64,000 bases of DNA from an uncultured delta proteobacterium (GTDB taxonomy: Bacteria; Desulfobacterota; WTBG01; CAIYCZ01). The translations under genes were made by a program, and so were the position numbers. The DNA lies in contig CAWDOY010000003.1 of NCBI GenBank assembly GCA_963803975.1, positions 1 through 64,000 of the forward strand, in the 5' to 3' direction. Numbering within the stretch: position 1 is the first letter of the stretch; every line of letters begins with the position of its first letter. Shown in pieces: positions 44,474 through 63,879 of the stretch. Under the pieces are notes generated by a model, which searched no databases, was not told the DNA's origin, and saw only the letters and a program-made list of their open reading frames with translations.

Positions 44474-45862
44474 ATGGAGGGGACCATGCACAGCACCCTG
44501 GGAACCTATCTTAAAGAAATCAATAAAACTATAGTGCGAATTAAAAAACAGGTGGACCCCATAACACAGGTGGGTGACTTGTGCTCTCAGAGCGAAAAGA
44601 CTATCCTGTTTGAAAACATCAAGGGGTTCCCGGGATGGAAAATTTGCGACCTTCTGGTAAAGGACAGGAAAAGGCAAGCAATTGCTCTGAAAACAACTCC
44701 GGAACATGTGGTGCAGAACCTGGCAGCAAAAATTAATAAAGGACCGGGGAAGACAGCAGTTGTTGCTAAAGGTCCGGTAAAAGAAAAAATTCTAACCGGA
44801 AAACAGGCTCGTTTCAACAAAATACCATTTTGCGTGCACAGCCCCGGGGATGGAGGTCCTTATATCGGCTCAGGAATGTGTACCGTGCGCGACCCCGATA
44901 CCGGCCTGCAGAATGTTGCTATCCATAGAATCCAAATAAAAGGTCCTGATTGTGCCGCTGTGTCGCTTTTTTCTCCACACAGCAAGGCAATTTTACAAAA
45001 ATATGCCGAAAGGAAAAAGCCCGCGGCCATGGCAGTTGTTATCGGCCATCATCCCTGCTTTGAAATTGCCACTAACTATTTCGGCCCCCATGATACCTGG
45101 AGCGAGTTTGAGCTTGCGGCACGATTACTGGAAGAGGAAGTCGAAATGGTTCGCTGCGAAAATTCTGACATCCTCGTGCCGGCACATGCAGAGATCGTTC
45201 TGGAGTGTGAGATTAAACCGGGTGTGACAGAGATAGAGGGGCCGTTTGCCGAGTTCCATAATTATTATGCGTCAGAACCTGCACCCAAGCCGCGCCTTGA
45301 CTTGAAAACTATAACTATGAGAAAAGATGCCATCTACCGGCATCTGAACGCAACACCGTACACTGATCATCAGCCCCTGGCAGTGCTTCCCAGCGAGGCA
45401 CGGCTCTTTGATCAGCTTACGCGCAGGGGATTTAATATCCATGATGTGTTTATACCACCCTGGGGCGGACTTTTTATTGTCATTATCCAGATGACCGGGG
45501 CTATTGAAGAACAGGTCCGGGAGGCACTCCTCATGGCGCTGTTTAGCCCGGTATTGCTGTTCAGCAAGATTGCCATCGCTGTCGACGATGACATTGATAT
45601 ATATGATGCACAGGATATTATGTATGCGCTGGCAACCAGGGTAAATCCTGATAAAGACATCATACAGATACACGGTACCCAGGGCATACCCTACGATCTG
45701 TCGCTTCCTGAAATACCTGAAGCGCTGCCACTGCGCAGAGGAGGAAAACTTGCCATTGATGCAACCAAGCCGCCGACGGCAAAGAAAAAAATGCGGGACA
45801 AATTCAAGCGAGTGAGCCCCAGGGGGTGGGGGAACGTTTTGTTGAAGGATTTTATAGAATAG
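44474..45862 (+). CDS. UbiD family (prFMN-dependent) (de)carboxylase
   Basis: LFENIKG, DGGPYI, NVAIHRIQ, VPAHAEIVLE, EGPFAEF, VDDDIDI, KLAIDATKP. Confidence 0.9.
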   Translation: MEGTMHSTLGTYLKEINKTIVRIKKQVDPITQVGDLCSQSEKTILFENIKGFPGWKICDLLVKDRKRQAIALKTTPEHVVQNLAAKINKGPGKTAVVAKGPVKEKILTGKQARFNKIPFCVHSPGDGGPYIGSGMCTVRDPDTGLQNVAIHRIQIKGPDCAAVSLFSPHSKAILQKYAERKKPAAMAVVIGHHPCFEIATNYFGPHDTWSEFELAARLLEEEVEMVRCENSDILVPAHAEIVLECEIKPGVTEIEGPFAEFHNYYASEPAPKPRLDLKTITMRKDAIYRHLNATPYTDHQPLAVLPSEARLFDQLTRRGFNIHDVFIPPWGGLFIVIIQMTGAIEEQVREALLMALFSPVLLFSKIAIAVDDDIDIYDAQDIMYALATRVNPDKDIIQIHGTQGIPYDLSLPEIPEALPLRRGGKLAIDATKPPTAKKKMRDKFKRVSPRGWGNVLLKDFIE

Positions 45863-45906
45863 AATACAGAAGTCTGAATTCAGAATAAAATCTTCTGACT
45901 ACTGCC

Positions 45907-47751
45907 TCAGACACTAGCTGCTAAATCCAATTCCTCAAGTTTTGCCTTTGTGGGGACACCCGTTTTTATGTCCCACCCCCGTGCCTGGTAATAATCATCT
46001 AACAGCCGGTCCATCTCAAATATCTGGCCCTTGCTCGCCCCATCCGGCACCGGCTCTTTTATAAACCGTTCAGGCAGATAATCATCCTTTCGCTGCAACC
46101 CTTCACGCATATTAAATAACCGCTCAAGATTATAAATGCGCTCCCCGGCTTTTATGAGATACGTAACATCGCCAAATTCCTCAATGCCGGTAGCTGCCAC
46201 CAGCAGTTGCGCGTAGATTTCAGGGCTTATCCAGCCGAAGCAGGCGGGGAATCCGCACACAATAAGAGAATCATAGGTTGCCGTCTTGTCCTGGTTCTGC
46301 CTGGTGAGAGCACCTTTTCCCTCCACGACGAAACGATCGACCTGCTCGGGAATCCCGAACAATTCCTGCATGCCATACCCTGTCATGTGGCTGGCGCCGA
46401 TAGTTGACGTGGCAATATTTAAGCCATGTGCCTTTGCCCCTCGTGGCTCATAGGCAGGTATTTCCAGGCCTTTAACATGCATTGCGTACTTCTCCGCCCC
46501 GCGGCCGATCTTTTCCGCAGCCCTTCTTGTGCCCAGTGCCAGCACGTCGCCGATCCCTTCCCGTTTCACTATTTTCTTAAGCAGCTGATAAGCTGCCTGG
46601 TGATTCCCCCAGGTGAGTTCTATCCCATCAAGATCATTTTGGGAAAGTATTTTCTTCTCATACAGCTCCATGGCAAATGATAGCGTAACACCCGCAGCTA
46701 TAGTATCGATACCATAGTCATCACAGAGCTTGTTCGCAGCAACGACGAAACCAAGGTCCGTGCTCCCGATATTGGCGCCGAAACACCACATGGTCTCGTA
46801 TTCCGGTCCTTCAACAGCATCTCCTTTGTACTTGCCTTCTTTTACCTGCAAAATACTGCCGCAGTGTATGAAACAGCGGGCACATGCCATATCTTTTATA
46901 AATATCTGATCCATCTTGTCGGTCGTGAGCCCGGTAAAATCATCCAGATGCCCTGATTGAAAGTTCCTGACCGGATGCATGCCGATTTCATGCATCAGCG
47001 CAGTTATGCCTGATGAACCATGATGGCTGAATCCTCCGTATACCGGATGCTGCCTGGCCGCTGCAACCATGTCCCGGGTAACGGTATTAAGCCGCTGCCT
47101 GTCTGCAACGGCAACTTCGCTTGTTCCCCGCACGGCGATCGCCTTGATGTTCTTGGAACCCATGACCGTGCCCACGCCGCCTCTGCTCGCGCTCCTGCGC
47201 AGGTTCATGATTGCCGCGAACAGCGTGCCGTTCTCTCCTGCGGGCCCGATACACGCCACCTGGATTTTTTCATCCCCTAATTCTTTGATGATCATATCCT
47301 GAACTGTTCCGGTATCAATCCCCGTTCCCCAGAGGTGAGATGCATCTTTAAATTCAACGGTATCATTATTAATAAAAATAGTTGTTGGCCTCGGGGCTTT
47401 CCCTTCAATAATGACAAGATCAAAGCCGGTGTTTTTAAGCTCCTGCCCGAAAGCGCCGCCTCCTGTTGAGCGTATAAAAGCGCCGCTGAGCGGTGATTTG
47501 GTCACAACCATCCAGCGCGAGCTTGACTGGGCCCCTGTCGCGGTTAACGGGCCGGTTACAAAGTAAAGCTTATTATCGGGCCCGAGAGGGTCAGTGCCCG
47601 GCTTAAGTTCATCAAACAGATACTTTGCCCCCAGGCCTCTGCCGCCAAGAAACAGCTTTGCATCTTTATCGCTCAGCACCTCTTTCGATATCCGGCTGGT
47701 TGTTACATTTATCCTGAGCACATTACCTGCATAACCATATTTCAATGCCAT
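45907..47751 (-). CDS. Aldehyde:ferredoxin oxidoreductase (tungstopterin AOR family)
   Basis: GYAGNVLRIN, GGRGLG, KSPLSG, IGPAGE, GVGTVMGSKNIKAI, CARCFIHC, GPEYET, DDYGIDTI; start set at ATG 47751. Confidence 0.92.
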   Translation of the reverse strand: MALKYGYAGNVLRINVTTSRISKEVLSDKDAKLFLGGRGLGAKYLFDELKPGTDPLGPDNKLYFVTGPLTATGAQSSSRWMVVTKSPLSGAFIRSTGGGAFGQELKNTGFDLVIIEGKAPRPTTIFINNDTVEFKDASHLWGTGIDTGTVQDMIIKELGDEKIQVACIGPAGENGTLFAAIMNLRRSASRGGVGTVMGSKNIKAIAVRGTSEVAVADRQRLNTVTRDMVAAARQHPVYGGFSHHGSSGITALMHEIGMHPVRNFQSGHLDDFTGLTTDKMDQIFIKDMACARCFIHCGSILQVKEGKYKGDAVEGPEYETMWCFGANIGSTDLGFVVAANKLCDDYGIDTIAAGVTLSFAMELYEKKILSQNDLDGIELTWGNHQAAYQLLKKIVKREGIGDVLALGTRRAAEKIGRGAEKYAMHVKGLEIPAYEPRGAKAHGLNIATSTIGASHMTGYGMQELFGIPEQVDRFVVEGKGALTRQNQDKTATYDSLIVCGFPACFGWISPEIYAQLLVAATGIEEFGDVTYLIKAGERIYNLERLFNMREGLQRKDDYLPERFIKEPVPDGASKGQIFEMDRLLDDYYQARGWDIKTGVPTKAKLEELDLAASV

Positions 47752-47776
47752 TATAACCTCTCCCAAGTTTCTGTTA

Positions 47777-49403
47777 TTACAAAATTCCCTTCTCTTTTGC
47801 CCGGGCAACACACTCAGGATCTTTCCACCATTTATTAATTCCCAGATCCTGGGCAATGGTATTAGCTGCAAGATACCCCGGGCCCCAGATCACGCAACCA
47901 CCAGGGTATACTGAAGAACCACCGACGTAGAGCTTTTTTACCGGAGTCTTATTGCGCGAGCAATCTTCGTTTGGCCTGAGGAAGCCCATCTGGAAGGGGA
48001 TGTAGGCTCCCTGTTTATATGAGCCCTCACGCATATCAGGAAATTTATTCTGCATATCAAGCGGGGTGCTGATATAGCTTTGGAGGACTTTATCCGCGGT
48101 GATATTTGGAGCATACTGCCTTAACACTGCAATAGCACTGTTCAGCAAGCTCCTGCTTGAATTTGAGGTTATACCACTTCTCCGGGCCCTCTTTGAGGTT
48201 ATACGGAGCCATCATGGAAAGCTGGCTTGAACACCTTCCCGGTGGCGCAAGCAGTGGATCGTGGACACTGGGGAAACAGGCATTAAAGCCAATGGTATCA
48301 CCCATCTCTGCGTTATACAGGGCATCAAAGTGCTTCACCAGCTCTTCCATGGTCTCATAGCCAAGCACATACACACAGGCCTTATTGATGTCGGGATTTT
48401 TTTCTGCCGCTTTAAAATTCGGCGGCTCGGATAATGCGCTGTGGACACCAAACAAGCTGTAGCTTTCCCACTTCCATTTCTGAATTTTACTGGCAAATGC
48501 TTCAGTTATGCCGCCCTTGTCCATCAGGTCAATAAATGTTTGAATGGGGTCAATGGTGCTCAGAACTGCCTGTGAGGCCTCATAAAAAATCCCGTTTTCC
48601 ATCTCCACGCCCTTTGCCTCACCATTTTGCACAACAATTTTCTTAATCATCTGGTTGTTTTTAACCAGGCCATGATTTTCATGGATTACTTTGTTGAGCG
48701 CCTGTGCAACCATATGGGAGCCGCCTCTGACCAGTTGATAATTATGGGCGCGATTCAGGTACAGCAGCACTAAATAACCGAGGTTAACCAAGTCGTACTT
48801 TACCCCCCAGTGGCAGGCAATATAAAGGAGAAGGGCGCGAATATGTTCATTTTCAAACGCATCTTTTATAATATCAATTGGCTTGCGCTCACTGTAAGAC
48901 ATCATCGTTTTGCCTATCTCAATCTTCTGCATGTGCACAATGGCGTCCAATGCTCCTACGGGAGGGATATAGGTGGCCGGGCCAATATAGTCATCAACAC
49001 AGCGCTTGGCCGTGTGATAAAATTCACGGTACGCATCCGCATCCTTTTGGGAAAATTGCGCAAATGATTTGCATGTTCGGTCTATGTCCTTATAGATGCA
49101 TACGCAGCGTCCATCTGAGAGCGGCATGGCAAATTGAAGATCGGGATACAGGTGGTGCACCTTGTAGTCTTCCTCAAGCCGGAAATCAGGATACACCGGA
49201 GCAAAATCCACCATCATCATATACACGGCATGAGTGCTGTGCAAAAAACCTGGAAGGGTTGACTCTTCTGTCCAGAGTCCTCCGCCGCATTCGTATCTGC
49301 GCTCAAGAACCAGAACCTTCAGCCCCGCCTTGCTGAGATATGCTCCCGCCTCAAGACCGTTGGGCCCAGCCCCAATTATGATAATATCATACTTGGTATC
49401 CAT
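47777..49403 (-). CDS. Phytoene-dehydrogenase-family (COG1233) flavoprotein B, frameshift near 48130
   Basis: IIIGAGPNGL, ERRYECGGG, GGSH, PSVHDPLLAPPG. The downstream frame has QYAPNI, STPLD and TPVKKLYVGGSSVYPGG. Confidence 0.85.
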
Positions 49404-49486
49404 GGTATCTCCTTCTTACGCAGTTTATGGCCGCGACCATTACGTCGTGACATAAGCCCCTGCTATGCTCTGGTATCATTCAATGT

Positions 49487-51128
49487 TTAAAAGGGGTAGC
49501 CGTTCTTTTCCCAATGCTTTTCCAGATTATGCTCCTCGGCGATAACCTTAAAGCAGTTGTATGCCTGGGCATCCATTGCTCCTGCGCTGAAACCCCACGC
49601 AACACCGGTACAATAAAGGTTCTTTATGGGCGTTTTATACCGGGCCAGTTCCGGAACCGGTCGAAATTTTCCCGTTTGGCCAGGAATAACATCAATCACA
49701 CCCCAGTTCCCCTGGGGGCCCATATTTTTCAGACGCAGGCAGTCATACGGGGTGAGCGGGTCATAGCCGATGATGTTATCCCAATTCATATTAGGTGCAT
49801 ACTCCTGCCAGTATTTTAAAACATCTTCAGCGTTTTTCTTCTTATAATCCAGCCATTCCCGCTCCGACATCTGGTTGGCAGCAAGGACAAACTGCTCAGA
49901 CCCGGCAATATGCTTTCCCTTCGGCGCCTGGGTTGGATCGTCCTGGCTGAGGCACCATACCAGCAGTGCCGAATCAGAGGTATTTGCGGGCGGCATCTTG
50001 CCCAAAACCCGCCAGGCATTTTCCCGGACGAGTACTTCAGGGTCTTTTATACTCAGACGCCAGAAGACCGGTCCGGTGAATATCCTGTTGAAATGCCTCG
50101 GCAAGGTAGCGGGGCCGCTCATGGATGGCCCAATGGTACCAGGTAATACAAATTAATTTGCGGGAAAGGTGTTTCACCCTGCGGATTGTCCTCGGTTCAA
50201 AATATTCTTCTCCGGTTAATTGCAAACAGAGCTGTTCGGGCGACAGCGTGCTCACTACCAGCTTTTTAGCCTCAATTTCAGTGCCATCAACCAGACGAAT
50301 CCCCTTGGCAACGCCATTTTCTATGAGCACTTTATCAACCTCATGCTTGGTAAAACTTTTCCCCCCGTTTTCCAGATACACCTTGTGACAGGCGTGTGCG
50401 TAGCTGTGGGTTCCACCGACGACACCGCCAAATTGTATCAGAAGGGGCAGGAGCAGAAGCTGCGAGATGCCGGTGCCTGGCATCAGGGGTGAATAGGGCA
50501 TGCCGGCATGCGAGGGCCGGAGCACTGAGGTTACCACCTCATCAGATTCAAACAGGTCTCTCAGTACCTCAAGGGCTGATTTTACTCCCCAGATGGGATC
50601 AATGCCGAGAGCAGGGTCCATCAGGGTCTTTTCCATGGTATCCGGCTCGTAATGGGGAGGAGGCGGGTTATATATCCATTTGCAGAAAGCAGGCTCTATT
50701 TTCTCCTGCCATTTTTTCCATAGCTCCAGCCAGGTATCTGCATCCTTTTGTGAGAAGCGGGCTATTGAGGCAGCGGTCTTTTCCTGACTGGGATCACAGG
50801 CCGGGTTATACCAGGCAATACATGATTGATCCTCTTTGAAAATAGTTGCCATTGCAGGATTAAACGGAAACCACTGCCCTCCCTTTTCAATAAATTCAGG
50901 GAAGTCCCGCTCAAGCACTATTTTCCAGTACTTGTCTATATTCACCGCATGGGTATTGGTGATAAATCCCGGTGCAGCGCTCTCCTCGCAGGACCATCCG
51001 CCCCCCAGCTCGTGCCGGCAATCAAAAATACCAACACTCATGCCGGCATATTTAGTCAGATACATGCCGGTAATAAGTCCTTTATTGCCTCCCCCGATAA
51101 TAATTGCGTCAAAAGATTTATCAGCCAT
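49487..51128 (-). CDS. Phytoene-dehydrogenase-family (COG1233) flavoprotein A, frameshift(s) near 50050-50090
   Basis: IIIGGGNKGL, ELGGGW, GGTH. The downstream frame has DPTQAPKGKH, EYAPNM, TPYD and YKTPIKNLYCTG. Confidence 0.85.
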
Positions 51129-51169
51129 ACGTGTGTTCCTTCCGTATTGATTGCTTATATGCTCTCTAT

Positions 51170-51418
51170 TTAAAAGTCATTTGTATTTCTTGGATTCCTC
51201 CAATTCTTCAAACCAAAAAGAAGAAACTTAAAAACCGGTCCCTTTAAAATCAGCTTGACCATGGTCAACAGGTCGCCATAATCCATGGCAGCCCTGACGT
51301 GCCATTGAACGGGATCAATGGTCTGGACGTGGAGGATCAAGTAATCCTGAACCATGGTAATCTTGTCCAGCTTACTCACCAGTACTGTTTCACCTAACCC
51401 TGTTGACCGCAGTTTCAT
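51170..51418 (-). CDS. Small hypothetical protein upstream of the COG1233 pair
   Basis: 82-aa co-oriented ORF (MKLRSTGLGETVL..WHVRAAM..) preceded by a GGGGG purine run. Confidence 0.7.
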   Translation of the reverse strand: MKLRSTGLGETVLVSKLDKITMVQDYLILHVQTIDPVQWHVRAAMDYGDLLTMVKLILKGPVFKFLLFGLKNWRNPRNTNDF

Positions 51419-51520
51419 GTTTTTTACCCCCAGTCTTATTTATAGTCTATTATCGCTGTCATGCACTTCTGCGAGATAAATCAAAACTATCCAGAAGCAG
51501 TTCCCCATGGATGCTCATCC

Positions 51521-52285
51521 TTAATAGAAACAAATTCCTCCATCTACCGGCAGCGCCTGGCCGGTCATCATGTCGCTTTCATCAGACGCTAAAAAAACGA
51601 GACCACCCACCAGGTCCTCCGGCATGAGCTTGCGATGCCTGAGCTGCATCTGGTTGATCAGAGCCTCATCAGCGCCCGGGCCAAGATGACTGACGAATTT
51701 CTCCGTAGCCTCATCCCAGGTGCCGCCCGGCATAAAAACATTGGCTCTGATATTGTCAGCCGCGAGCTGCGCTGCCATCTGCCGCATCATGCCCATTTCA
51801 CCAGCCTTGGTAACGGCATAATGCATACAGGGGAGTCTCCCCACCACCCAGAAAACCGATGAAACGATAATAATATTGCCCTTTTTCTGCTCGCGCATAT
51901 ACGGTAAAACGCCCCGGGCACTGAGGAAGGGGCCCTTCAAGTTAACCGACATCACCCAGTCCCATTCTTTCAGGTCAATATTCTCGAATGGCTGTGGTTT
52001 AAGCTGTCCGTATATACCGGCATTGGCAACCAGCACATCAATTCTGCCAAAGGCTTCGCTGGTCTTTGCTGCCATCTGTTTCGTGCTCTCTTCATCTCTG
52101 ACATCAACTTTAATTCCTATCGCCTGTCCACCCTTGGCTTTAATCTCATTAACAACAGGGCCGGGATCAGTTGCATGGGAACAGACAGCTACCTTTGCAC
52201 CTTCATGTGCCAGCCCGAGGCTGAAGGTCCTGCCGAGACCCGAGGCTCCGCCAGTAACGATGCATACCTTGTCTTTTAGTCTCAT
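51521..52285 (-). CDS. Short-chain dehydrogenase/reductase
   Basis: TGGASGLG, VANAG, YAVTK catalytic motif, TGQALPVDGG. Confidence 0.92.
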   Translation of the reverse strand: MRLKDKVCIVTGGASGLGRTFSLGLAHEGAKVAVCSHATDPGPVVNEIKAKGGQAIGIKVDVRDEESTKQMAAKTSEAFGRIDVLVANAGIYGQLKPQPFENIDLKEWDWVMSVNLKGPFLSARGVLPYMREQKKGNIIIVSSVFWVVGRLPCMHYAVTKAGEMGMMRQMAAQLAADNIRANVFMPGGTWDEATEKFVSHLGPGADEALINQMQLRHRKLMPEDLVGGLVFLASDESDMMTGQALPVDGGICFY

Positions 52286-52351
52286 TGCTGACTCCTTTTG
52301 AAATGGGTTGATACTAAATGTGACGTCTATCTCGGGCGTTTGCCGTTACTT

Positions 52352-52855
52352 TCACTTCCTTTTATCTACAAAGGGAATACTTTCTGCGAATTTGGTCTGA
52401 AGATCAATTACAAATGTTGCCATCCGCGGATCATTTTCACAGCCTATCTTAAACGCATAACTGCCTCCCGGCGGGAAATTCTCAGTATATGCATCCGACG
52501 TAACTGTCCTCAGGAACTGTCCCGATGCATCATTCCATCTAAGATTTACATAAACATATTCAATTTTCTTGCTGGTAATATTTTTAATCGTGCCCTCAAG
52601 ATAGCGCTTTTCCCCTTCAACAAAATCTCTGGTATATTCAAGAGCCAGTTGGGGTTCTATGCCAATTTTTACTATTTCCTTTGGGGCAATTTCCTTAAAA
52701 AATTCCTCCTTCTCTTTTACGCTCCCCTTATAGGCCACATAGAGCACAGCAAAAAAGATTATAAAACCGACCATGACGGCTGAAAAGGAGAACAAATCCT
52801 TTAGCCATTTTTTCTTTTCTTTTTTATCTGGTTCCTCACTATATCTGGTATCCAT
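52352..52855 (-). CDS. Membrane-anchored FxLYD-like domain protein
   Basis: One TM, then LEGTIKNIT..YVYVNLRWNDASG..PGGSYAFKI. Confidence 0.6.
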   Translation of the reverse strand: MDTRYSEEPDKKEKKKWLKDLFSFSAVMVGFIIFFAVLYVAYKGSVKEKEEFFKEIAPKEIVKIGIEPQLALEYTRDFVEGEKRYLEGTIKNITSKKIEYVYVNLRWNDASGQFLRTVTSDAYTENFPPGGSYAFKIGCENDPRMATFVIDLQTKFAESIPFVDKRK

Positions 52856-54181: not shown

Positions 54182-55623
54182 TTAAAACTCGTAGCGTATC
54201 TTAAAAGTAACTTCATCATTGTTTCTAAAAATACCCATACCTTCAGTTTTGTTATGTCCCCAATATACTCCGCCCCCCAGAATGAATCTCAAGTGACTTC
54301 CGATTTTATATTTAACAGAAGGCAGAAAGAATCCCCAGCCGGTTGTTGAATAGGCAACTAACATTGATGGAACAATGGAATCATTGCGAAAACCGGTCTC
54401 AAGAATTAATGTAAAGGCGGTAAAAGTGGTATCATTTGCACCCATATCCGCCGGTCTGACCCACCCGGGCGGGGGGTGCATAATATATCTCTGGAACATC
54501 TGCATGCTGATGAAGACGCTGCGGTAGTTATTCCATTCTGAGAGGTAGGGCACCATGGTGGGTCGGTCAAAGCCGATCATATAGGAAAACACATCTGATG
54601 ACCTGATTCCAAACGGGGGTGCTCCCGTTAGAGTGGTGTTAAACTTCTGTCCCATATTCAATCCCCACTCTCCGCGCAGCACCGCCTTGCTCCATTCATT
54701 ATAGCCGGTTACTGTTCCTCCCAGTACATTATAGCGCCTGTATTTAAATAATTTCTCTCCCCCAAATAAAACTCCTTTGATAAGCTTGTTCGCATTATCA
54801 GTAAAAATGGGATCATCGCTTCGTGTATAAAAATCATGAAGATTGATATCCCATCCTTTGATTTTTGCACTGATACGGAACCCTATCTCACCATTATTAA
54901 TGTCATTGTCCGGCCTTGATTGCTTGAAATTGAGCCAGAACTGCCGGGTAATAGCGGGGACTCCCCAGTTCATTCCGTTAGCTGCCAGTTGGGTAGGTTC
55001 AAAATCATAAGGTATATAGACCGTCTCAAAAGAGATATCCCCAGGAAGCTCAGTTTTATACCATGCTCTCATCATCCAGACGGGGATGACCAGGTCCTCC
55101 CAGGCTTCGAATGTCCAGTGCCATGACTGGTCCAGCGGGTTGATGATATCTGCAATGCGAAAGCCATCAGCCTCCCCCCAGGTAGCAACCTGTTTGCCAA
55201 TGCGAATCTGGAACGGTCCACTGGCAATATCTGTATAAATTTCCCTGAGCCGATTGTTGCCATTTTCATGTCTTAATCGGCTATGATCGCTTCTATTTGA
55301 AGCTCTGCTGTAATCCTGGTCAATGTCAAAAGCACTCTCATAGAAATCACGCAGGGTACCATAAAAGCTGACATTGTAATTAGGACACTCGATGAGTTTA
55401 TAACCCATTTCAAGATAAAAGGTATTCCGGCTATTGGAAAAATAGCCGCGATCCTCCTGCTTGGACTTCTGGGGACGCCAGGCGGTAAAATTTTCAAAGT
55501 ATCCTGATATGTCAAGCTTGCCGTCCAGATATTCCTTGGCATATCGCATCAGGCCCAGCTAACGAGAACAGCTGCAATCAGGACAGGAAAGAACAATGTA
55601 AATTGTTTGACTATTGTTTTCAT
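54182..55623 (-). CDS. DUF1302 family outer-membrane beta-barrel protein (frameshift just after the signal peptide)
   Basis: LREIYTD, RIGKQVATWGEADG..DIINPLD, C-terminal YEF. Signal peptide MKTIVKQFTLFFPVLIAAVLVSWA starts at 55623 in another frame. Confidence 0.8.
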
Positions 55624-55648: not shown

Positions 55649-56098
55649 TTACCTGACAATGATCTTACCTTTGAACTCTTCTGTGCGAGAATAGGGGGTT
55701 GGTGATGGCCTCCTCACCGTATAATCGAATGTCCCCTTCTCGATAAAACAGAGGCTTGCCACCGCTCCCAAAGGAATTTTGTCAGAGATAAAGGAGCCCT
55801 GTGCATCCACCACGAAATGAACCGGCTTGTCGCAGGCAATGGTAACTTCCTTACCCGTAAACTGTATTTCCGCCATCTCCCGGGAGTAGTTCAGCCAGAT
55901 AACAGTGGTGCCGGAGTCAACGGTGACTGTCGGCGGGTTTATACCGGATATTGCTTGAAGAGAAATGACCTGATGGCCCTGAAGCTTTTTTTCAGGTATG
56001 ATCTTCCCCTCCTGGCTCCATGCAGTCGTCACCGTAACCAGGAAACTGCAAAAAATTCCTGTAACAAGTATGATCCTTAGATATGCTCGTTTTTTCAT
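55649..56098 (-). CDS. Secreted cupredoxin-like fold protein
   Basis: Signal peptide, NPPTVTVDSGTTVIWLN, F.EKGTFDY, FKGKIIV; no C-x-x-H-x-M copper loop. Confidence 0.55.
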   Translation of the reverse strand: MKKRAYLRIILVTGIFCSFLVTVTTAWSQEGKIIPEKKLQGHQVISLQAISGINPPTVTVDSGTTVIWLNYSREMAEIQFTGKEVTIACDKPVHFVVDAQGSFISDKIPLGAVASLCFIEKGTFDYTVRRPSPTPYSRTEEFKGKIIVR

Positions 56099-56141
56099 AA
56101 GCTACCCTCCTTCTTTTGTTATCTAGGTGCTTCTCAAAGGC

Positions 56142-58514
56142 TTACTTTGGCTCTCTGAGAAACTTTGGCTTAAATATCGCTATGAAACTGGGAACAAGAA
56201 GCAGAGCCCCGAGCGCATTAAAGAACAAAAGAATTGCGAGCAGGATTCCCATCTCTGCCTGGAACCGTAATGAAGAAAAGTACCATGAAATAAGCCCAAG
56301 CAGCAGCGTAGAGGCAATAATCAAGACCGCCTTTCCGTTGCTTTTCAAAGCTTCAGCGACCGCTGCATTCAGGTCATCAGTTTTTTCTCGTTCTTCCAGT
56401 ATCCGGCTCAACAGGTACAGCCCGTAATCAATTCCCAACCCGATTCCAACCGATGAAACCGGGTACGTGCCCACCGTAAGCCCGATCTGAAAAATCCCCA
56501 TATAGGCAAAGGCAAACAGGTTGGATATGGCCAGAGGCACCACCAGGATGATCCCCGCTACTATTGAGCGGTACGTGAGGGCACAGAATACAAACACACC
56601 AAACAGGGCAAGCGTGAGGTTCCATATCTCTGACCTCTCAATGACCTCGTTCGTGGCTGCTTCGACACCTACCACACCACCACCTAATTTATAGCGACCT
56701 TCCTTTAACTGAGAATGTTTTTCTATAAAGGTCTTTGCCTCCTGTATGACGTGCCTGACGGTATCGCCTTTCCGGTCTTTGGCATAACAGATCAGATTTC
56801 CTTCCTGATTATTGTGGGTAATGTATTTATCAAAGTCGCCGGCATCTGAACTGGTAAGAAGTTGATAAAAGAAGTTACCTATGTCACTTGCCGTGTCAGG
56901 GATGATTTCCCATTTGGGATAGTATTCACGTAATTGCATATTAATCTTTTTAATCAAATCAACCATGGAAAGGGTGCTGATCACCAGGGGAGATTTTGCC
57001 ATGTAGCGCTGAAATGCCTCTATATCCCGGTGTACGCCTGGTTGTTTCATTGCTTCCGGTTCATTTCCCTCCATGACAATATACAGCGGTGTCTGCAGCC
57101 CGGGAAATTTATTATCAATTCGTTGCACATCGAGATTGTATCGTGAGTCCGGCCACAGCAGGGATGATCCCGGGTAAACATCTCCGGTCGTCATCTTGTT
57201 TGCATAACCGAAGCTTATGACAACTAATACGATGGTACCGGCAAGGATAACCCAGCAGCCCTTGCCCATAATCCAATAGCCCATCCTGGGCATCAATCTA
57301 TCAATGATATCCTGTTTCAGCGTTCCGTCCTGCAATTCCTGTGCTTTCTTTTTCATGCCCCTGGCTTCCGGCATGTAGGAAAGCACGACCGGTGTAAAGA
57401 CAAGAGCAAAGATAATGGTGGCAATAGACCAGAAAGCACAGGTAATAGAGATTTTCTGCAAAATGGGAATAGGCGCCAATGCCACTAACCCGATGCCGAA
57501 AGCATCCGTGACGATTCCTGTCACACCGGCCATAAACATTGCCTCAACCACGTTGCCGGCGGCAGTGCGTGAATTCCCAACCAGTACATATTCCTCCATG
57601 TAGCGATTCACCTTCTGCATGGCATGACGAGCAGTCATGAGAGCTATAAGAAAGGGAAGTACCAGCACCAGAGGATCCAGGTTGAAACCCATTAACGCCA
57701 TGAACCCTAATCCCCAGATCCCGCTTAACACTGCTGCAAGGATTGGGACAAACATCGCCCTTTTGGATTGATAGGTAAAATACATGTAAATTAGTACCAC
57801 CACGGTAGAGAGTACCAGAATGAGCACAACTTCGCCCACCAGATCGCGCACGATACCCAGGAGCACAGGGTTACCAACAATAGAAACAGTGGTATTCTTA
57901 TCCTCGTACTTGTTTCTAATCTCATGTAACGTATTAAACAGGTATTGATAGTCAACATCTTCTTCAAAAAAATCGGATAGGATAAGGGCTGCCTTGCTAT
58001 CCATGGAAACAAGGCTGCCATAAATGAGATCATTTGAATAAATTGCCCGTTTCAGTTTTTTCATCTCATCGTCATTTTGAGGCACATAGGGAAACATGAT
58101 CGAGGTTGTTTCAATGCCCCAGTCAGTCACTTTCAGATCCTTTACTTTTCTCTGGGCAATAGAGAGAATCTTGTAGCGGTCAACGCCGGGAATCTTTACC
58201 AATTCCTCTGAGATATTTTTAATTGTACTCAGCGTTTTTTTATTGAAGATGGTCCCCTCTTTTACTTCTACAGAAATCAACAGCAGGTTGGCACCGCCAA
58301 ATATCTCGCGGAATTTATTATGTATCTTTACATAGGGATGGCTCTGCGGCAGCAGGTCGCCAAAATCAGTAAACACGCGCAGTTTGGTTATCTGGTAGGC
58401 AAAAAACAGGGTAATTGCAATAACTGCCATAAGGATCGAAAATCGCCAGCCGATAACAAAATTTGCTATGCGCTGCCCGCCGGTTTTTTTCTGTTGTTCC
58501 ATGTTCTCCATCAA
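56142..58514 (-). CDS. MMPL/RND family transporter
   Basis: Two repeats of TM, large periplasmic loop and 5 TM; FGGAN, TDAFG, GIGLGIDYGLY. Confidence 0.88.
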   Translation of the reverse strand: MMENMEQQKKTGGQRIANFVIGWRFSILMAVIAITLFFAYQITKLRVFTDFGDLLPQSHPYVKIHNKFREIFGGANLLLISVEVKEGTIFNKKTLSTIKNISEELVKIPGVDRYKILSIAQRKVKDLKVTDWGIETTSIMFPYVPQNDDEMKKLKRAIYSNDLIYGSLVSMDSKAALILSDFFEEDVDYQYLFNTLHEIRNKYEDKNTTVSIVGNPVLLGIVRDLVGEVVLILVLSTVVVLIYMYFTYQSKRAMFVPILAAVLSGIWGLGFMALMGFNLDPLVLVLPFLIALMTARHAMQKVNRYMEEYVLVGNSRTAAGNVVEAMFMAGVTGIVTDAFGIGLVALAPIPILQKISITCAFWSIATIIFALVFTPVVLSYMPEARGMKKKAQELQDGTLKQDIIDRLMPRMGYWIMGKGCWVILAGTIVLVVISFGYANKMTTGDVYPGSSLLWPDSRYNLDVQRIDNKFPGLQTPLYIVMEGNEPEAMKQPGVHRDIEAFQRYMAKSPLVISTLSMVDLIKKINMQLREYYPKWEIIPDTASDIGNFFYQLLTSSDAGDFDKYITHNNQEGNLICYAKDRKGDTVRHVIQEAKTFIEKHSQLKEGRYKLGGGVVGVEAATNEVIERSEIWNLTLALFGVFVFCALTYRSIVAGIILVVPLAISNLFAFAYMGIFQIGLTVGTYPVSSVGIGLGIDYGLYLLSRILEEREKTDDLNAAVAEALKSNGKAVLIIASTLLLGLISWYFSSLRFQAEMGILLAILLFFNALGALLLVPSFIAIFKPKFLREPK

Positions 58515-58559
58515 CGCCCTAACCCCTCTGATATGTCCTCTAAGAAGTCTCTGAAACTG

Positions 58560-59600
58560 CTACTCTTCTGTTATGGATGTCCCGGAGATGATCTCCCAGG
58601 AACTCCCCTGATTTGATGTGCGGACAACAGTTCCATGAGCTCCTACTATCCAGCCCTCCTGTGAGTCATCTGCAAAAGCAATGTCCATAAGCCAGGATTT
58701 CGAATTAATGGCTTTTTCCATCTCTTTCCAGGTAGCACCACTGTCGTTTGAAACAATAAATGCACCCCGAGTGCCGACTGCAAACCCCTTGTCCCCGATA
58801 AACTTCATGCTGTAGAGATGTTTACTGGTGCCGCTGTCTTTTTTCTTCCAGTTCCGGCCCCCATCTTCAGTGGCTATCATAATCCCGTCCATCCCGATAG
58901 CCCATCCCCGTTGCTGATCCTTAAAAAATACTCCATACAGCGAGACAGTGCCAACCCCGCTCTCCTGTTTTACCCAGGTTTTGCCCCCATCTGCCGTATG
59001 ATAGATGGTCCCGTATTCCCCGACAACCCAGCCGTTAAGATTATCTGCAAAATAAAGGCTGTTATATAACCGGTCTTCATCCTCTTTTTGAATGCTCCAT
59101 GATGCACCGCCGTCAGCGGTGTGAATAATTATTCCATTCATGCCATAGCCCGTCGCCCAGCCATTCTTTTCATCAACAAACATTACTTCATAGAGAGTGG
59201 CCTTGGTGGGGCTGGTTTGGGCGACCCACGTTGCACCGCCATCAGCCGTGTGGAGGATCGTGCCGTGCCTGCCGACTACCCACCCTTTTTTCTGATTCAC
59301 GAACGCAACGCCGTACAACTCATCAATGGTGTTGCTTTTCTGCTGAATCCAGTCTTTGCCACCGTTGCTGCTGTGGTAGATCTTTCCATAATAGCCTGCA
59401 CACCACACTGATGAGCCGCCCTTGGAATCTATGCTGTAGAGGTTATCGATATAGGTAATAGGGGAGGGTGTGAGGGACCTGTTTTGCGCAGAGGAATTTG
59501 CAGTATCTTGCTCTGCACAGCCGCTCAGGGCAGATGTGACAAGAAGGCAAGTAATGGTTAAAACAAACGCTGAGCCCGATATTTTTTTTGCGAAAGACAT
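58560..59600 (-). CDS. Ycf48/BNR-repeat beta-propeller lipoprotein
   Basis: Lipobox LSGC; repeated GW.VG..GTI.HT.DGG.TW motifs. Confidence 0.88.
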   Translation of the reverse strand: MSFAKKISGSAFVLTITCLLVTSALSGCAEQDTANSSAQNRSLTPSPITYIDNLYSIDSKGGSSVWCAGYYGKIYHSSNGGKDWIQQKSNTIDELYGVAFVNQKKGWVVGRHGTILHTADGGATWVAQTSPTKATLYEVMFVDEKNGWATGYGMNGIIIHTADGGASWSIQKEDEDRLYNSLYFADNLNGWVVGEYGTIYHTADGGKTWVKQESGVGTVSLYGVFFKDQQRGWAIGMDGIMIATEDGGRNWKKKDSGTSKHLYSMKFIGDKGFAVGTRGAFIVSNDSGATWKEMEKAINSKSWLMDIAFADDSQEGWIVGAHGTVVRTSNQGSSWEIISGTSITEE

Positions 59601-59827
59601 GTCTTTTAGCCCCTCTTCTATCCATGAGGATAGAATACTGTGTACGGACAAAAAAACTCTTTCCCCTTATTCAGTATGCGTATCGCGGCTTAACTATATA
59701 TGCTGCTCTGATGATAGACTTCATCAAACAGGTAGCGTTAGTGTCAAAATAGCTCCGGTATATTTTAGGTTTAAAGAGTTTCAATGGTATAATTTCCAGA
59801 CTGCCGAAATCTGTAAGTGCGCTGCAT

Positions 59828-60442
59828 TTAGCCTGAAGATTTCTCGTCCCTGGTCAGTCCGTCTGCAATCAGATTAATGAGAATATTTTTAAACTCATCA
59901 AAATTGTCAACTCCCAGATTCTGCTTATGATAACACACAAAACAAAACGCACGGATAATCCCGACAAGAATTTCGATTTTCTGTTTTTTAATTTGTTTTT
60001 TTTCCAGCAGCTTTTTAAAAAATAAATGCAATATTCTGACGTCATCATTTACTAATTCCTCATATTTGCCCCGGGGCAATTTTATTTTCAGTATATCCTT
60101 GGCATCGTAGATATAAAATTCAATTATATGTCTTTTAGTTTCTATATAATCAGCAGCGAATGTCATAAGAGCTTTAAAATATTCTTGTGCTGATAAATCT
60201 GATTCGAGCAGGTCATCCATGAATTTCCTGCGTATATTCACCTCATGCTTTAATACCTCTACAAAAAGATCCTCCTTGGAATTAAAGAAGTTATAAAAGG
60301 TGCCCTTTCCTATGCCGACTAATTTTGTTATGTCTTCGATACCCGTTTTTCTAAGCCCGTAGCGGGAGAAACAGTGACTCCCCTTTTCTAAAAGCTGTTT
60401 TCGAATGACTTCCTTTTCAGTTTCGGTAAATGTTCGCGGCAT
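59828..60442 (-). CDS. TetR/AcrR family regulator
   Basis: FSRYGLRKTGIEDITKLVGIGKGTFYNFFNSKEDLF helix-turn-helix. Confidence 0.92.
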   Translation of the reverse strand: MPRTFTETEKEVIRKQLLEKGSHCFSRYGLRKTGIEDITKLVGIGKGTFYNFFNSKEDLFVEVLKHEVNIRRKFMDDLLESDLSAQEYFKALMTFAADYIETKRHIIEFYIYDAKDILKIKLPRGKYEELVNDDVRILHLFFKKLLEKKQIKKQKIEILVGIIRAFCFVCYHKQNLGVDNFDEFKNILINLIADGLTRDEKSSG

Positions 60443-60462
60443 ACAAGGCTTTCATTGAATAT

Positions 60463-60487
60463 ATGACTTATGTTGTCATTATAGTCA
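60463..60487. promoter_or_regulatory. Candidate TetR operator ATGAC-N7-GTCAT
   Basis: Inverted repeat 20 nt upstream of tetR, with a further GTCA half-site at 60484. Confidence 0.45.
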
Positions 60488-60591
60488 CTGCTACCGTACT
60501 GTAAATAGCATGTCAAGAGTTTTTATGTAAAATGTTAAAAAAAAGAGAACGGTAAAAATAGTCACAAAATAATAAAATATTATCTCGGGCG

Positions 60592-62316
60592 CTACTTCAT
60601 ACCGAATTTTATCGGCTCCATGCCGTTCATCTGCCGCAGTCCGTTAATAGCATCTGCCAACGGCTGGGGAACGTTTGCCAGCTCTTCTTCAGTGAACACA
60701 TAGCGGCCGGGAGCGCAGACATTATTCGGGTCCAGCACCTTCCTGAACTTTCTCAGAAGAAGATGCACATTGGGCCCCATCTCCGGGAAAAACGAGGTGA
60801 GCGGTTCAAGACTTGCTCCAAAACCGGTTACCCCTGGGCCGATCTTATCAGCCATTGACTTTCCGATGCCGAACATCATAAGCTGCTGGGCCTTCATCAG
60901 TGCCTGGGGATCCATGCCGTTGGGATAGACATCAGCTTCGGTCAAAAAACTCCTTCCGCACGGGTCGGCGGCATACATGAACGGGGTGTTATCTACTCCG
61001 CCGCGGTCAGTAATATACGTCTCGCCAATGGTATTAATTGCTTTTGTCCATAAATCCTGCGCTTCCCTGCCGATGTCAGGGTCACCGCAGCAGAACCAGG
61101 TGTCCAGATAATAAAACCGCGACATGCGGTAGCCGCACACGTGCCTGATGCAATCAAGGTTCCAGGGACTCAGGGCGGCAAGAACCTCAGGCTTGTATTC
61201 TGCCGATAGAAACGTACCTCCCAGTCGCTCTATGATTTTTCTCAGGACCTTTTCCTCGTAGTCAAGCTGCTTGTCCGCTACGTATGCGCCGCTGATGACA
61301 TAAATATTATAGGGAGGGAAAAAGTTTTCCTGTACCCGTTTAAGCGTCAGCTCCTGGGTCGCAGAACAGTAATATGCGTTATAAATGCCCGTGGCATTCA
61401 ATCCGATGCCGATTCCTGCGTGCGCCACATCCCGCAGCGCCTGTATCTCCGTTTCCATGTCGGGAAGCTCGATCCAGTGCAGGCGATAGTTCTGCGGCGG
61501 GTTGACCGTATCGTGCCGGTCGTCATAATAGGTTCTGATGCAGGGTCTTCCTGCTGCCGGCTCCGGCAGGATTTCTCCACCCGGCCATGGGTGCAGTTTT
61601 ACGGTTACCTCGGCTACAATTCCCGATGCCCCCGAACTCCCTCTGAACATGCTGTAGAGATCAGGGCCCGGAGCGTATTCATAAAAGTCGTCCACTCCTT
61701 CCACCGCCTGCGAGCCGGTTTTAAGAAGCTCACCATCGGGCAGCACCAGGGTAAACCCGACGATATTTTTACAGATGGTGCCGTACTTTTTGCTTGTTTG
61801 CCAGAGTCCGGCCAGAACCGCCTGTGATGATATCTTGCACAGAGATGTCGCCAGGGGCGTGCCGCCGTTCCAGAGCCCGCGCTTCATGGCCTCTGCCTGC
61901 ACCTGTCCGTAATCCACATAGGGCTGGACGCGCATGGTCATTGCGTCTTCATCTATTTCGATAATCTGATTCATTCTGCTGTAGTGGATACAAACAGTCG
62001 GGGCAGGCGTTGTGGGCATACAGGCAATGCCGAGCTGGCCGTTGGTCATTGAGATAAAAGGAACTTTATATTTGTTGGCAATCCGGACAACAGCCTGTAT
62101 CTCTTCTGTCGTTCCGGGCAAAATAATACAGGCAGGGATGTTGGAAGGATCTTTTGCGTGTTTTTTCAGGTATCCAATTATATCGATCCCGAACCTGCTG
62201 TAGGTTTCTATAACCGCACGGTCCTGGCTGATATAGTCTTTCCCTACAACAGCTTCAAGTTCTGCGTAGATTGCCGGAGGCAGACGGTTTGCCCTGACTG
62301 CTTTCTTTTCTTCCAT
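60592..62316 (-). CDS. VAO/PCMH-type FAD-binding oxidoreductase 1
   Basis: PACIILPGTTEEIQAVVRIAN, RMNQIIEIDED, VLPDGELLKTGS, DPNNV..PG. Confidence 0.8.
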   Translation of the reverse strand: MEEKKAVRANRLPPAIYAELEAVVGKDYISQDRAVIETYSRFGIDIIGYLKKHAKDPSNIPACIILPGTTEEIQAVVRIANKYKVPFISMTNGQLGIACMPTTPAPTVCIHYSRMNQIIEIDEDAMTMRVQPYVDYGQVQAEAMKRGLWNGGTPLATSLCKISSQAVLAGLWQTSKKYGTICKNIVGFTLVLPDGELLKTGSQAVEGVDDFYEYAPGPDLYSMFRGSSGASGIVAEVTVKLHPWPGGEILPEPAAGRPCIRTYYDDRHDTVNPPQNYRLHWIELPDMETEIQALRDVAHAGIGIGLNATGIYNAYYCSATQELTLKRVQENFFPPYNIYVISGAYVADKQLDYEEKVLRKIIERLGGTFLSAEYKPEVLAALSPWNLDCIRHVCGYRMSRFYYLDTWFCCGDPDIGREAQDLWTKAINTIGETYITDRGGVDNTPFMYAADPCGRSFLTEADVYPNGMDPQALMKAQQLMMFGIGKSMADKIGPGVTGFGASLEPLTSFFPEMGPNVHLLLRKFRKVLDPNNVCAPGRYVFTEEELANVPQPLADAINGLRQMNGMEPIKFGMK

Positions 62317-62340
62317 AGTGCAACACCTTTGTCTTAAAAT

Positions 62341-62410
62341 CCAGTTGTCAGCCGTCAGGAGTCAGAATCATTTCATTCTGATTTTCGGATTCTGTCTTCT
62401 GAATTCTGTA
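62341..62410. repeat. Degenerate inverted heptamer repeats (TCAG arm / TTCTG arm)
   Basis: gtcagcc-gtcagga-gtcagaa followed by ttctgat-tttcgga-ttctgtc-ttctgaa-ttctgta. Confidence 0.6.
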
Positions 62411-62412
62411 GT

Positions 62413-63879
62413 TTAAAACCCAAGCTTCCCCGGATTCAGTATCCCCTGTGGATCCATCTCCTTTTTGAGCTGCTTAAGCTTTGAGAAGTAGTGCGGCGCC
62501 TTGGCGTAAACCATTTCGGCCCAGTAGCCGTAGGGCCGGTCAAAAAGAGCCCCCTTATCCTGAAGCATCGAACTTGCTGATTGCCACAGTTTATAAACCT
62601 TGTCCCGCTCGCCGTCATCCGCGCCGCAGTGAAGATCGAGCTCACAGTGTATTGACCTGCCCCGTTCAATTATCGTAAAATAACCGCCAACGTCTTCCGG
62701 GGCATAGCCGGCTGCCCTGGCAGCAGCGGAAACTGCTGCTGCAAGCTCCGGCAGCTTTTTCAAAGGCGCCTTGAACGAAAGATCATGGACTGAACCCTTA
62801 TAATTGAATTTTCTTAAAACTCCCCATGGCCTGAGACTTTCCCTGAGAAAAACTTTTTCTATCTCAGGGAATGCGGGTAGTTCGGTAACTACACGCAAGC
62901 CCAGTTTTTGCCCCATAGCGTACAGCGACTCCTCCTGAATCTGCACCCATTCTTCCGGGAAGTGGGGGAACCCTGCCAGACCGATAACTATTGTCCAGGA
63001 CGGCAACAGCTGTTGTAACTGCTTAAACCTCTCAGATGGCGTGGCAGGAGCGGGGAACCCTCCGGGGATCTGCCACTCCTCATTAAGAAGGGCCGCCAGG
63101 TTAAAGCGATTGAGCGCAAAACACTCAAGCCCTATTTCCTTTCTCTGAATCTGCTTTAATGCCTCGGGGATGTCCTGTAAATTATCAAATGCTATAAAGA
63201 AGAACTTTCGCACAGAGGACAGGTGCTGCGCGCTTATAACCATTTTCGTAACAATGCCCAGCGTGCCCTGAGCTCCTGTCCAGAGCCGGTAGATTGTATT
63301 CAGGCCGGGACCGTAGAGGCCTCCCGGCCTGCCCCCGAGATTCCAGCAGCCGGTACGGAACAGCTCCCCATCGGGCAGTACCATCTCCGTGTCATGGGTG
63401 AGATAATTGCCAAGCTCCAGATGAGCTGCGGCCATCACCACATCCCGCTCCAGATAACTGGTCAAAACAGATCTTCCCGGGGGAATACCAAACGGCATCA
63501 TTACCCGCAGCCCCTTTTTCTCTAATGCGTCCTGCAGCTTTGCATAGGTCACCCCGGGCTCAATGATTACATACAGGTCTTTGTCATTTATCTCTATAAT
63601 GCTGTCCATGCCGGACATATCCAGCACTATTCCTCCATATGCAGGAATTGCGGCACCGTGCAGATTAAGGCCGGAGCTGAAAGGAGTAAGCGGGGTTTTG
63701 GTCCGGTTGGCAAGCCGCACAATCTCCTGTATTGCTGCTACACTCTGCGGCCGGACAATAACATCCGGGCGGCTGGCCTTTACAAAGCTCTGGTCAGCTG
63801 CATAGCGCTCTTTCAGGGCAGGGTCATCAAACACATTGCCAGAACCCGCAATCTGCTCAAGCTGTTTTATCAGGCTCAT
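62413..63879 (-). CDS. VAO/PCMH-type FAD-binding oxidoreductase 2
   Basis: PDVIVRP, IEPGVT, VLPDGELFRTG, GAQGTLGIVTK, KKEMDPQGILNPGKL. Confidence 0.85.
   Translation of the reverse strand: MSLIKQLEQIAGSGNVFDDPALKERYAADQSFVKASRPDVIVRPQSVAAIQEIVRLANRTKTPLTPFSSGLNLHGAAIPAYGGIVLDMSGMDSIIEINDKDLYVIIEPGVTYAKLQDALEKKGLRVMMPFGIPPGRSVLTSYLERDVVMAAAHLELGNYLTHDTEMVLPDGELFRTGCWNLGGRPGGLYGPGLNTIYRLWTGAQGTLGIVTKMVISAQHLSSVRKFFFIAFDNLQDIPEALKQIQRKEIGLECFALNRFNLAALLNEEWQIPGGFPAPATPSERFKQLQQLLPSWTIVIGLAGFPHFPEEWVQIQEESLYAMGQKLGLRVVTELPAFPEIEKVFLRESLRPWGVLRKFNYKGSVHDLSFKAPLKKLPELAAAVSAAARAAGYAPEDVGGYFTIIERGRSIHCELDLHCGADDGERDKVYKLWQSASSMLQDKGALFDRPYGYWAEMVYAKAPHYFSKLKQLKKEMDPQGILNPGKLGF

Follow-up and report, generated by a model that had tools for sequence, protein, structure and literature searches.

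A co-inherited gene set around a COG1233 flavoprotein pair in Desulfobacterota: a candidate oxygen-independent route for ring demethylation

A 64,000-nucleotide stretch of DNA from an uncultured delta proteobacterium of the Desulfobacterota (contig CAWDOY010000003.1, positions 1 to 64,000; hereafter the window) carries, in the region 44474..63879, two adjacent COG1233 flavoprotein genes (A and B), a gene for a small partner protein, and genes for a short-chain dehydrogenase/reductase (SDR), an AOR-family aldehyde:ferredoxin oxidoreductase and a UbiD-family (de)carboxylase. After comparing the host genome (G000) with other genomes and loci (numbered G and L), we found that the pair, the partner, SDR, AOR and UbiD are linked in a conserved manner and form a co-inherited set. 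We propose, at a probability of roughly 0.45, that this core removes, without O2, a methyl group carried by an activated ring. A preliminary description of the window, made from its sequence alone, had left room for these genes being neighbors here only; the pair, partner, SDR, AOR and UbiD recur together elsewhere.

Domain searches recovered every gene named in that description, each where it had been placed. The UbiD gene (44474..45862; 462 aa; Pfam UbiD; TIGR00148 over cut-off) encodes a prFMN (de)carboxylase of an HmfF-like branch; it lies on the plus strand, convergent with the AOR gene and 44 bp from it. All other genes of the region are on the minus strand. They include AOR (45907..47751; 614 aa counted from the ATG at 47751), the CtmB-like flavoprotein B (47777..49403; intact length 541 aa), the CtmA-like flavoprotein A (49487..51128; intact length 546 aa), the 82-aa partner (51170..51418) and SDR (51521..52285; 254 aa; Pfam adh_short; motifs TGxxxGxG, NAG and YxxxK). 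The gaps between the minus-strand genes, from the outermost flavoprotein gene VAO1 through AOR, measure 24-176 bp.

Relative to L134, a 97.8% identical metagenome contig in which both genes are intact, at 546 and 541 aa, each of A and B carries a net one-base insertion that splits it (near 50056-50058 in A and near 48130-48135 in B). The first insertion is absent in contigs from 4/4 public DNA runs and the second in 3/4, the fourth having no bridging contig. Likewise, among 38 G000 genes that have an orthologue of at least 55% identity in the locus set, 10 are split. Because near-identical strains lack the insertions, the splits are very likely assembly errors, and a pseudogene reading of A and B was dropped. 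The frameshift repair called for by the preliminary description was made by reading intact A and B from L134, which also stood in for the window in the tree described below.

The motif, the two-subunit architecture and an indirect bridge through strain NaphS2 support the assignment of A and B to the covalent-flavin family of limonene dehydrogenase (CtmAB) and Δ24-steroid desaturase (Δ24-SD), in agreement with the kinship to CtmAB claimed earlier. Both subunits of CtmAB and Δ24-SD share the flavin-histidine consensus G-F-L/R-X-N/S-T/L-H-A (PMC11061730). The B motif, GFLHSTHA with His58, is an exact match, and the A motif, GFITNTHA with His60, deviates at one position, with I instead of L/R. The histidine is kept in 72/72 aligned B homologues; A homologues have His in 43/62 and Cys in 19/62. 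A and B are 27.6% identical, compared with 27% for CtmA and CtmB (PMC4109377) and 26% for the subunits of Δ24-SD (PMC11061730). The best match of both CtmB (41%) and CtmA (30%) is a NaphS2 protein (PMC4109377), and NaphS2 has exactly one A/B-type pair at E<=1e-10, to which B of the window is 58% and A 41% identical; the bridge to CtmAB is an indirect one. In a FastTree phylogeny (midpoint root; 156 sequences, each 480-640 aa long, taken from the dereplicated loci and excluding characterized members), the A clade (53 sequences, support 1.0) and the B clade (79 sequences, support 0.99) are separate, and G003, G004 and G028 form a tight subclade with the species of the window. A structure search found no solved CtmAB-like structure, and the nearest was CrtI (4dgk). 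A and B very probably form a complex, likely a covalent-flavin enzyme.

Several variations within the family are recorded here as observations. The Cys at the flavinylation position of A (for example in L028, L041 and L045) is possibly a cysteinyl-flavin variant. Four tandem A genes accompany one B in L082:807-9630, and three in L040, which suggests that A sets the substrate range. One genome, G024, has more than 20 strong COG1233 matches together with 22 UbiD matches.

G000 holds a single A/B pair, a single small partner and two UbiDs, together with 24 AOR loci, 21-22 VAO-type loci, 14 DUF1329 loci and 14 MMPL loci. With so many paralogues, local adjacency means little for the repeated families, so linkage was tested in other genomes. 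There were 116 loci with B at an identity of at least 42%; dereplication at 85% left 76, of which 38 were at least 12 kb long. Within 10 kb of B in these 38 loci, A was adjacent in 37, SDR and the small partner were each present in 25, AOR in 18, PEP-synthase-like genes in 10, UbiD in 8, CoA ligases in 7, uptake genes in 6 and VAO genes in 4. At random places in G000, a rough yardstick because it comes from one genome and a different detection procedure, the rates were 5.5% for SDR, 10.5% for AOR, 1% for UbiD, 6.7% for VAO and 7.7% for uptake genes. SDR, AOR and UbiD are thus enriched beside B, and VAO and uptake genes reach at most about twice the background. Across the phylum, AOR and UbiD are repeatedly found next to the pair, and the partners of homologues differ by clade, with PEP-synthase-like pairs, CoA ligases or hydantoinase-like genes.

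The distribution within the order (21 genomes) is sharper. Orthologues of B (at least 61% identity), SDR (at least 83%) and UbiD (at least 71%) are all found in G000, G003, G004 and G005 only, and the other 17 genomes, including the same-genus sisters G001 and G019, have none of the three. AOR (at least 67%) occurs in the same four genomes and in G002, and VAO2 (at least 73%) in 8/21, four of them without the pair. The shared genes lie on different contigs and in shuffled order among carriers. G003 has SDR-small-A-B-VAO-AOR at one place and elsewhere UbiD facing VAO2/VAO1 orthologues, AOR and SDR; G004 has SDR-A-B-GGR-VAO1-VAO2 and, separately, small-PAS-AOR-UbiD; G005 has A-B..SDR, AOR-UbiD and a VAO pair beside an uptake module. 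At L131, small-A-B-AOR-GGR-UbiD stand on one strand. A plasmid search (147 records) gave best rows below 30% identity and no pathway clue, and a cluster look-up with ten homologues returned nothing.

Two other arrangements of the pair stand apart. In a separate B subclade (L046, L050, L051, L053, L059, L063 and others), the order is LysR, B, small partner, A, SDR and two PEP-synthase-like subunits, often with AOR; there, phosphorylation at the expense of ATP could drive a hydroxylation that is uphill, or activate an alcohol that is then reduced. In the cultured organism NaphS2 (L023:111-20980), two small partners and a duplicated SDR accompany the pair, which lies between two old-yellow-enzyme-type genes and four hydantoinase/acetophenone-carboxylase-like ones.

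Neither Pfam nor NCBIfam has a match for the 82-aa partner. It carries the motif M.xRSTGLG...PVxW, of which S.G.G ... P..W is invariant in 43/43 aligned homologues. Of 401 genomes of the phylum, 35 yielded B, 36 the small gene and 31 both, where about 3 would be expected under independence; kin are not independent in this count, and three candidates per genome were scored in the search for B. A structural model (pLDDT 89.5) has four strands and two helices and lacks a metal-binding motif. Its best fold match, COMM-domain-like at Z 5.2, is not trusted, and the Atlas gave unnamed clusters only. A predicted complex of B and the partner scored 0.05 and gave no verdict. No fusion to a longer protein was seen among 7996 candidates, which is weak evidence. 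The partner is likely a docking or assembly factor.

SDR orthologues of 83-87% identity lie beside the pair in G003, G004 and G005, and an AOR orthologue of 78-80% follows it in L030, L076 and L128. The earlier label of a tungsten-type AOR holds as far as the AFOR_N and AFOR_C domains and the EYET and Cys motifs go; the metal itself is not readable from sequence. In a strain 94% identical over the operon, UbiD is 73% identical, co-directional and downstream, and UbiX was found in 5/5 carriers tested. The nearest structures to UbiD in the PDB are 6h6x/6h6v (E 1e-58), which we take to be the furan-2,5-dicarboxylate decarboxylase HmfF; the next lies at 2e-35, a gap of 24 orders of magnitude. The catalytic HR and EGPF-E motifs are kept. 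Arg304 and Arg331 of 6h6v, which in HmfF have a role in binding the second carboxylate, are replaced by Ser and by a gap/Leu, respectively, and this loss suggests a mono-acid substrate. His299 of UbiD aligns with His296 of the 6h6v chain and appears equivalent to H297, the HmfF-type histidine described as key for furan-type specificity (PMC7976604). It is present in 8/8 close UbiD orthologues, and the same column has no histidine in any of 12 other UbiDs aligned. Five members of the UbiD cluster carry the database label 2,5-furandicarboxylate decarboxylase.

The physiology of the host also bears on the proposal. DsrA was not found in 5/5 close carriers, including G000 (98% complete), nor was the benzoyl-CoA ring-opening hydrolase TIGR03200, and the positive controls matched in both searches. 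The canonical ring-cleavage route therefore appears to be missing in the host, and with the ring-opening hydrolase not found, a decarboxylase makes sense as the last step. G000 has acetyl-CoA synthase and 36 open reading frames (ORFs) with at least three CxxCH motifs, including a GSU2203-family decaheme over its cut-off and HmcA. High-potential extracellular acceptors are thus plausible for the host. Limonene dehydrogenase has been argued to need an acceptor of positive potential (PMC12583861, 2025); the multiheme inventory, together with the lack of a detected DsrA, eases this thermodynamic objection for the host, but not for carriers of DsrA. The G000 contigs C19, C53 and C20 (L200-L202, L207) also show dense clusters of multiheme cytochromes, with as many as 28 hemes, and a pair resembling GSU2203/GSU2204, which suggests extracellular electron transfer.

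Overall, we propose the following putative mechanism. The A/B pair would convert ring-CH3 and water to ring-CH2OH through a stabilized cation; SDR would turn this alcohol into the aldehyde, AOR would oxidize the aldehyde to the acid, and UbiD would release CO2 and the demethylated ring. The net reaction would be R-CH3 + 2 H2O -> R-H + CO2 + 6 [H], with the first, high-potential electron pair passing to quinone and on to the multiheme cytochromes, and the small partner serving in docking or assembly. The VAO pair would probably supply a related alcohol or aldehyde to the AOR and UbiD steps, and the DUF1329/DUF1302/MMPL/Ycf48 module would probably move a hydrophobic substrate or product. The parts of this proposal differ in strength. 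A redox route acting on a one-carbon side group is probable, and the oxidative direction is moderately favored; we lean only slightly towards UbiD acting on the product acid, and a five-membered heteroaromatic substrate such as a methylfuran is a doubtful guess. Of the earlier route from hydroxylation to (de)carboxylation, the family kinship, the absence of a carotenoid role and the linkage of the core held up, and hydroxylation and its direction stand as a proposal only.

Several observations weigh against this proposal. The two characterized family members differ in chemistry, CtmAB hydroxylating and Δ24-SD desaturating (PMC11061730), and no CtmEF-like ferredoxin or reductase was found in the window or among the recurring neighbors of the pair. 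Many carriers have DsrA (4/4 in one set tested), which sits badly with the positive-potential acceptor called for in PMC12583861. The small gene was not found in G005 although the pair is present, and in G028 and G041 the pair occurs while close orthologues of SDR or AOR are lacking. Most of the UbiDs in the 8/38 long loci that have one belong to other subfamilies (~28-32% identity), and the position of a UbiD in the tree does not fix its substrate (PMC7976604). Outside the order, six genomes of the class (59-98% complete) have a UbiD orthologue and lack B at E<=1e-110; the presence of UbiD, AOR or VAO without the pair would fit a lower pathway.

The main alternative, which we regard as unlikely, is a disproportionation of (hetero)aromatic aldehydes or alcohols, in which AOR and UbiD oxidize some molecules and A/B dispose of electrons by reducing ring-CH2OH to ring-CH3. 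The alcohol/methyl couples lie near +45 to +85 mV by textbook formation energies, which favors reduction in low-potential cells, and CtmAB reversibility was reportedly described in a 2018 paper in the Journal of Biological Chemistry. The family is, moreover, common in DsrA-bearing genomes, for which PMC12583861 doubts the oxidative direction. However, DsrA was found neither in the host nor in its nearest carriers, and the multiheme inventory of G000 could reach high-potential acceptors; both characterized members act oxidatively, and the literature search found no such reductase described. It is also conceivable, at fairly long odds, that A/B act on another activated C-H bond, either by desaturating a side chain or by oxidizing a ring-CH2-N/O/S group and releasing an aldehyde for AOR and UbiD. 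Δ24-SD, a member of the family, is a desaturase, B has a weak amine-oxidase Pfam match, and the presence of AOR beside the pair in 18/38 loci with partners that vary by clade suggests several chemistries. Nevertheless, SDR is the commonest catabolic neighbor (25/38) and keeps 83-87% identity within the nearest clade, which fits an alcohol product, and the NaphS2 protein is 41% identical to CtmB, compared with 38% between the Δ24-SD beta subunit and CtmB (PMC4109377; PMC11061730).

Less probable still is a patchwork of catabolic cassettes in which only A, B and the small protein form a unit; such a reading is likelier for the VAO and uptake genes than for the core. The 24 AOR, 21-22 VAO-type and 14 DUF1329 loci of G000 speak for it, as do the low counts of VAO (4/38) and uptake genes (6/38) beside B and the occurrence of VAO2 in 8/21 genomes of the order, half of them without the pair. 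Against it, SDR and UbiD track B exactly within the order though they lie on separate contigs, the 94% identical strain has its 73% UbiD downstream and co-directional, and VAO orthologues stand beside the pair (G004, L080) or beside UbiD (G003, G026). A role of A/B in modifying carotenoids or other isoprenoid lipids, in the manner of CrtO or CrtI, was largely refuted and is very improbable. CrtO remains the best NCBIfam match, some databases label the homologues so, and G000 does have a carotenoid locus elsewhere. Yet A reaches 137 bits and B 206 on CrtO, whose cut-off is 1000; B scores 92 on crtI_fam (cut-off 238), and the carot_isom score is 51 (cut-off 587), whereas the genome's own crtI reaches 419 on crtI_fam. 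With these carotenoid-enzyme cut-offs missed, the carotenoid role was rejected, and the grouping with carotenoid enzymes that the preliminary description had set out as its counter-case was not borne out. No carotenoid gene families were seen among the recurring neighbors of the pair; G005 (97% complete) and G024 have B without PF00494, and PF00494 occurs in 33/42 genomes of the class but B in 9. The earlier statement that crtB and crtE are absent applies to the region but not to the genome, since the locus on contig C5 (L229:6692-12346) has a phytoene-synthase-like gene and a crtI over its cut-off. That locus also holds a 149-aa His-rich gene, presumably crtZ-like, which has no NCBIfam match.

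The VAO-fold flavoproteins are less firmly tied to the core. VAO2 (60592..62316; 574 aa; uncharacterized subfamily) and VAO1 (62413..63879; 488 aa) are ~20% identical, and each matches FAD_binding_4. Both fall far under the GlcD NCBIfam cut-off (77 and 76 bits, against 568), and EHG, the C-terminal metal motif of GlcD and D-lactate dehydrogenase, is present in neither protein, nor in the conserved columns of 16 aligned homologues. A housekeeping role as lactate or glycolate dehydrogenases, which would have spoken against the preliminary description, was rejected. The label VAO/PCMH-type (PCMH, p-cresol methylhydroxylase) is apt for the fold but does not, on this evidence, extend to PCMH specificity: the matches are confined to the FAD domain and are about equally distant from phenol oxidases and D-lactate dehydrogenases, and no cytochrome c subunit gene is adjacent. 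A structure model of VAO2 (pLDDT 62; 14-19% structural identity and an rmsd of ~16-17 to all matches) is too poor for subfamily assignment. VAO2 orthologues of 80% and 83% directly follow the pair in L026 and L080, respectively. The suggested place of the VAO pair in the pathway is thus backed by linkage in the nearest clade and weakened by a spread wider than that of the COG1233 pair. An early view that the VAO pair and UbiD are unrelated bystanders was dropped. VAO paralogues in G000 often flank a CCG Fe-S gene.

Between SDR and the VAO genes lie a FxLYD-domain membrane-anchored protein (52352..52855; NF038353; single copy), a DUF1329/LolA-like protein of the transport module (52895..54157; 14 loci in the genome), a DUF1302 outer-membrane protein (54182..55549; 13 loci), a 149-aa exported protein (55649..56098; matched by neither Pfam nor NCBIfam; 11 related loci, most of them next to transport modules), an MMPL/RND transporter (56142..58514; 14 loci), a Ycf48/BNR repeat protein (58560..59651; 13 loci) and a TetR-family regulator (59828..60442); where no other match is given, these are Pfam assignments. 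The FxLYD-domain and 149-aa proteins extend the earlier list of the run by two ORFs, and the former was not seen beside the A/B pair in other loci. The genes of the putative import module were confirmed, but their linkage is weak, the module being one of 14 paralogues. In relatives, the uptake modules close to the pair share just 23-43% identity with that of the window and are non-orthologous paralogues. DUF1329-type modules have been read as exporting a wall component (bioRxiv 072470) and as moving aromatics in an unknown direction (PMC13101534).

Other features of the region can be noted briefly. Directly upstream of VAO1, past the window end (L001:4059-11527), lies a second DUF1329/DUF1302/MMPL/Ycf48 module with DUF1329 and DUF1302 frameshifted. 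A fused ABC permease/GldG-like gene at 42062-44161 of the window flanks the cluster in G003, G004 and L128 too. A promoter and terminator scan was uninformative (41 sites against 30.6±4.9; 20 against 19.7±4.2). Contigs from two RNA-library runs cover 29/30 bins, but contigs without a silent control cannot show transcription. Most public runs holding the region come from metagenomes of freshwater or sediment. Across G000 we counted, pieces included, 35 VAO-type, 33 AOR and 27 geranylgeranyl-reductase-like ORFs, and from these large paralogue families the organism looks like a side-chain redox specialist. It also carries VAO-CCG-VAO triads resembling the ORM2a 'Magic' complex.

The set resembles several known systems and equals none. 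Like CtmAB of Castellaniella defragrans, it has two adjacent COG1233 genes of ~550 aa that are 27-28% identical, with the His motif in both and alcohol and aldehyde dehydrogenases next in the pathway. Behind ctmB come two small hypothetical genes, ctmCD, and NaphS2 likewise has two small partners after B, a likeness of position. In contrast, the window's host belongs to an obligate-anaerobe lineage and Castellaniella is a denitrifier; the window lacks CtmEF, has SDR and AOR in place of GeoA/GeoB, and has UbiD where the CtmAB pathway has a CoA ligase and ring cleavage. Δ24-SD of Sterolibacterium denitrificans shares the family, the alpha/beta pair and the His-linked flavin motif, but desaturates by a radical mechanism, and steroid-degradation genes do not recur beside the window's clade. 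HmfF is the nearest solved UbiD, with the catalytic motifs and the heteroatom-binding His kept and Arg304/Arg331 lost, and no hmfABCDE-like neighbors were seen. PCMH and the vanillyl-alcohol oxidases share the VAO fold in the FAD domain; only that domain matches, at the identity level of D-lactate dehydrogenases, and the adjacent cytochrome c gene is missing. In layout, the two divergent FAD-binding proteins and the DUF1329/Ycf48/MMPL module recall the GlcDEF-like, uncharacterized 'Magic' proteins 24-26 and the 'Nanopod' cluster of ORM2a, a benzene degrader of the Desulfobacterota (PMC13101534). However, the window's pair has no Fe-S gene between its members, and the ORM2a cluster has CoA enzymes, the available part of that source making no mention of a COG1233 pair. 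A literature search, with subscription journals and bioRxiv supplements outside its reach, found no description of this gene set or of the partner family. What was known is an enzyme family with two members; new are the exact co-inheritance, the co-occurrence of the partner family, the HmfF-type His, and a host whose genome gave no match for sulfate reduction (DsrA) or for ring cleavage (the ring-opening hydrolase).

Characterized enzymes of this family number only two, each from a denitrifier, and a paper of 2025 questions whether the family can work in strongly reduced habitats (PMC12583861). Close B homologues nonetheless occur in 35 of the 401 sampled genomes of the phylum, usually mislabeled as phytoene dehydrogenase or CrtO. 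They would represent either a fourth, flavin-based form of methyl activation in strict anaerobes, besides glycyl radical enzymes, molybdenum enzymes and PCMH, or an unrecognized alcohol reductase running backwards. We speculate, with considerable reserve, that one lineage of Desulfobacterota, not reducing sulfate, makes its living by oxidative C-demethylation. In it, a three-protein CtmAB-type enzyme (A, B and the 82-aa protein as a new subunit family), SDR, a tungsten AOR and an HmfF-type UbiD would take the methyl groups off furans or other (hetero)aromatics as CO2, with the intact ring excreted and the electrons passed to extracellular acceptors. If true, this would be an anaerobe that lives on side groups without opening the ring, and its O2-free methyl hydroxylase and heteroaromatic (de)carboxylase would belong to classes of enzyme that are sought as biocatalysts.

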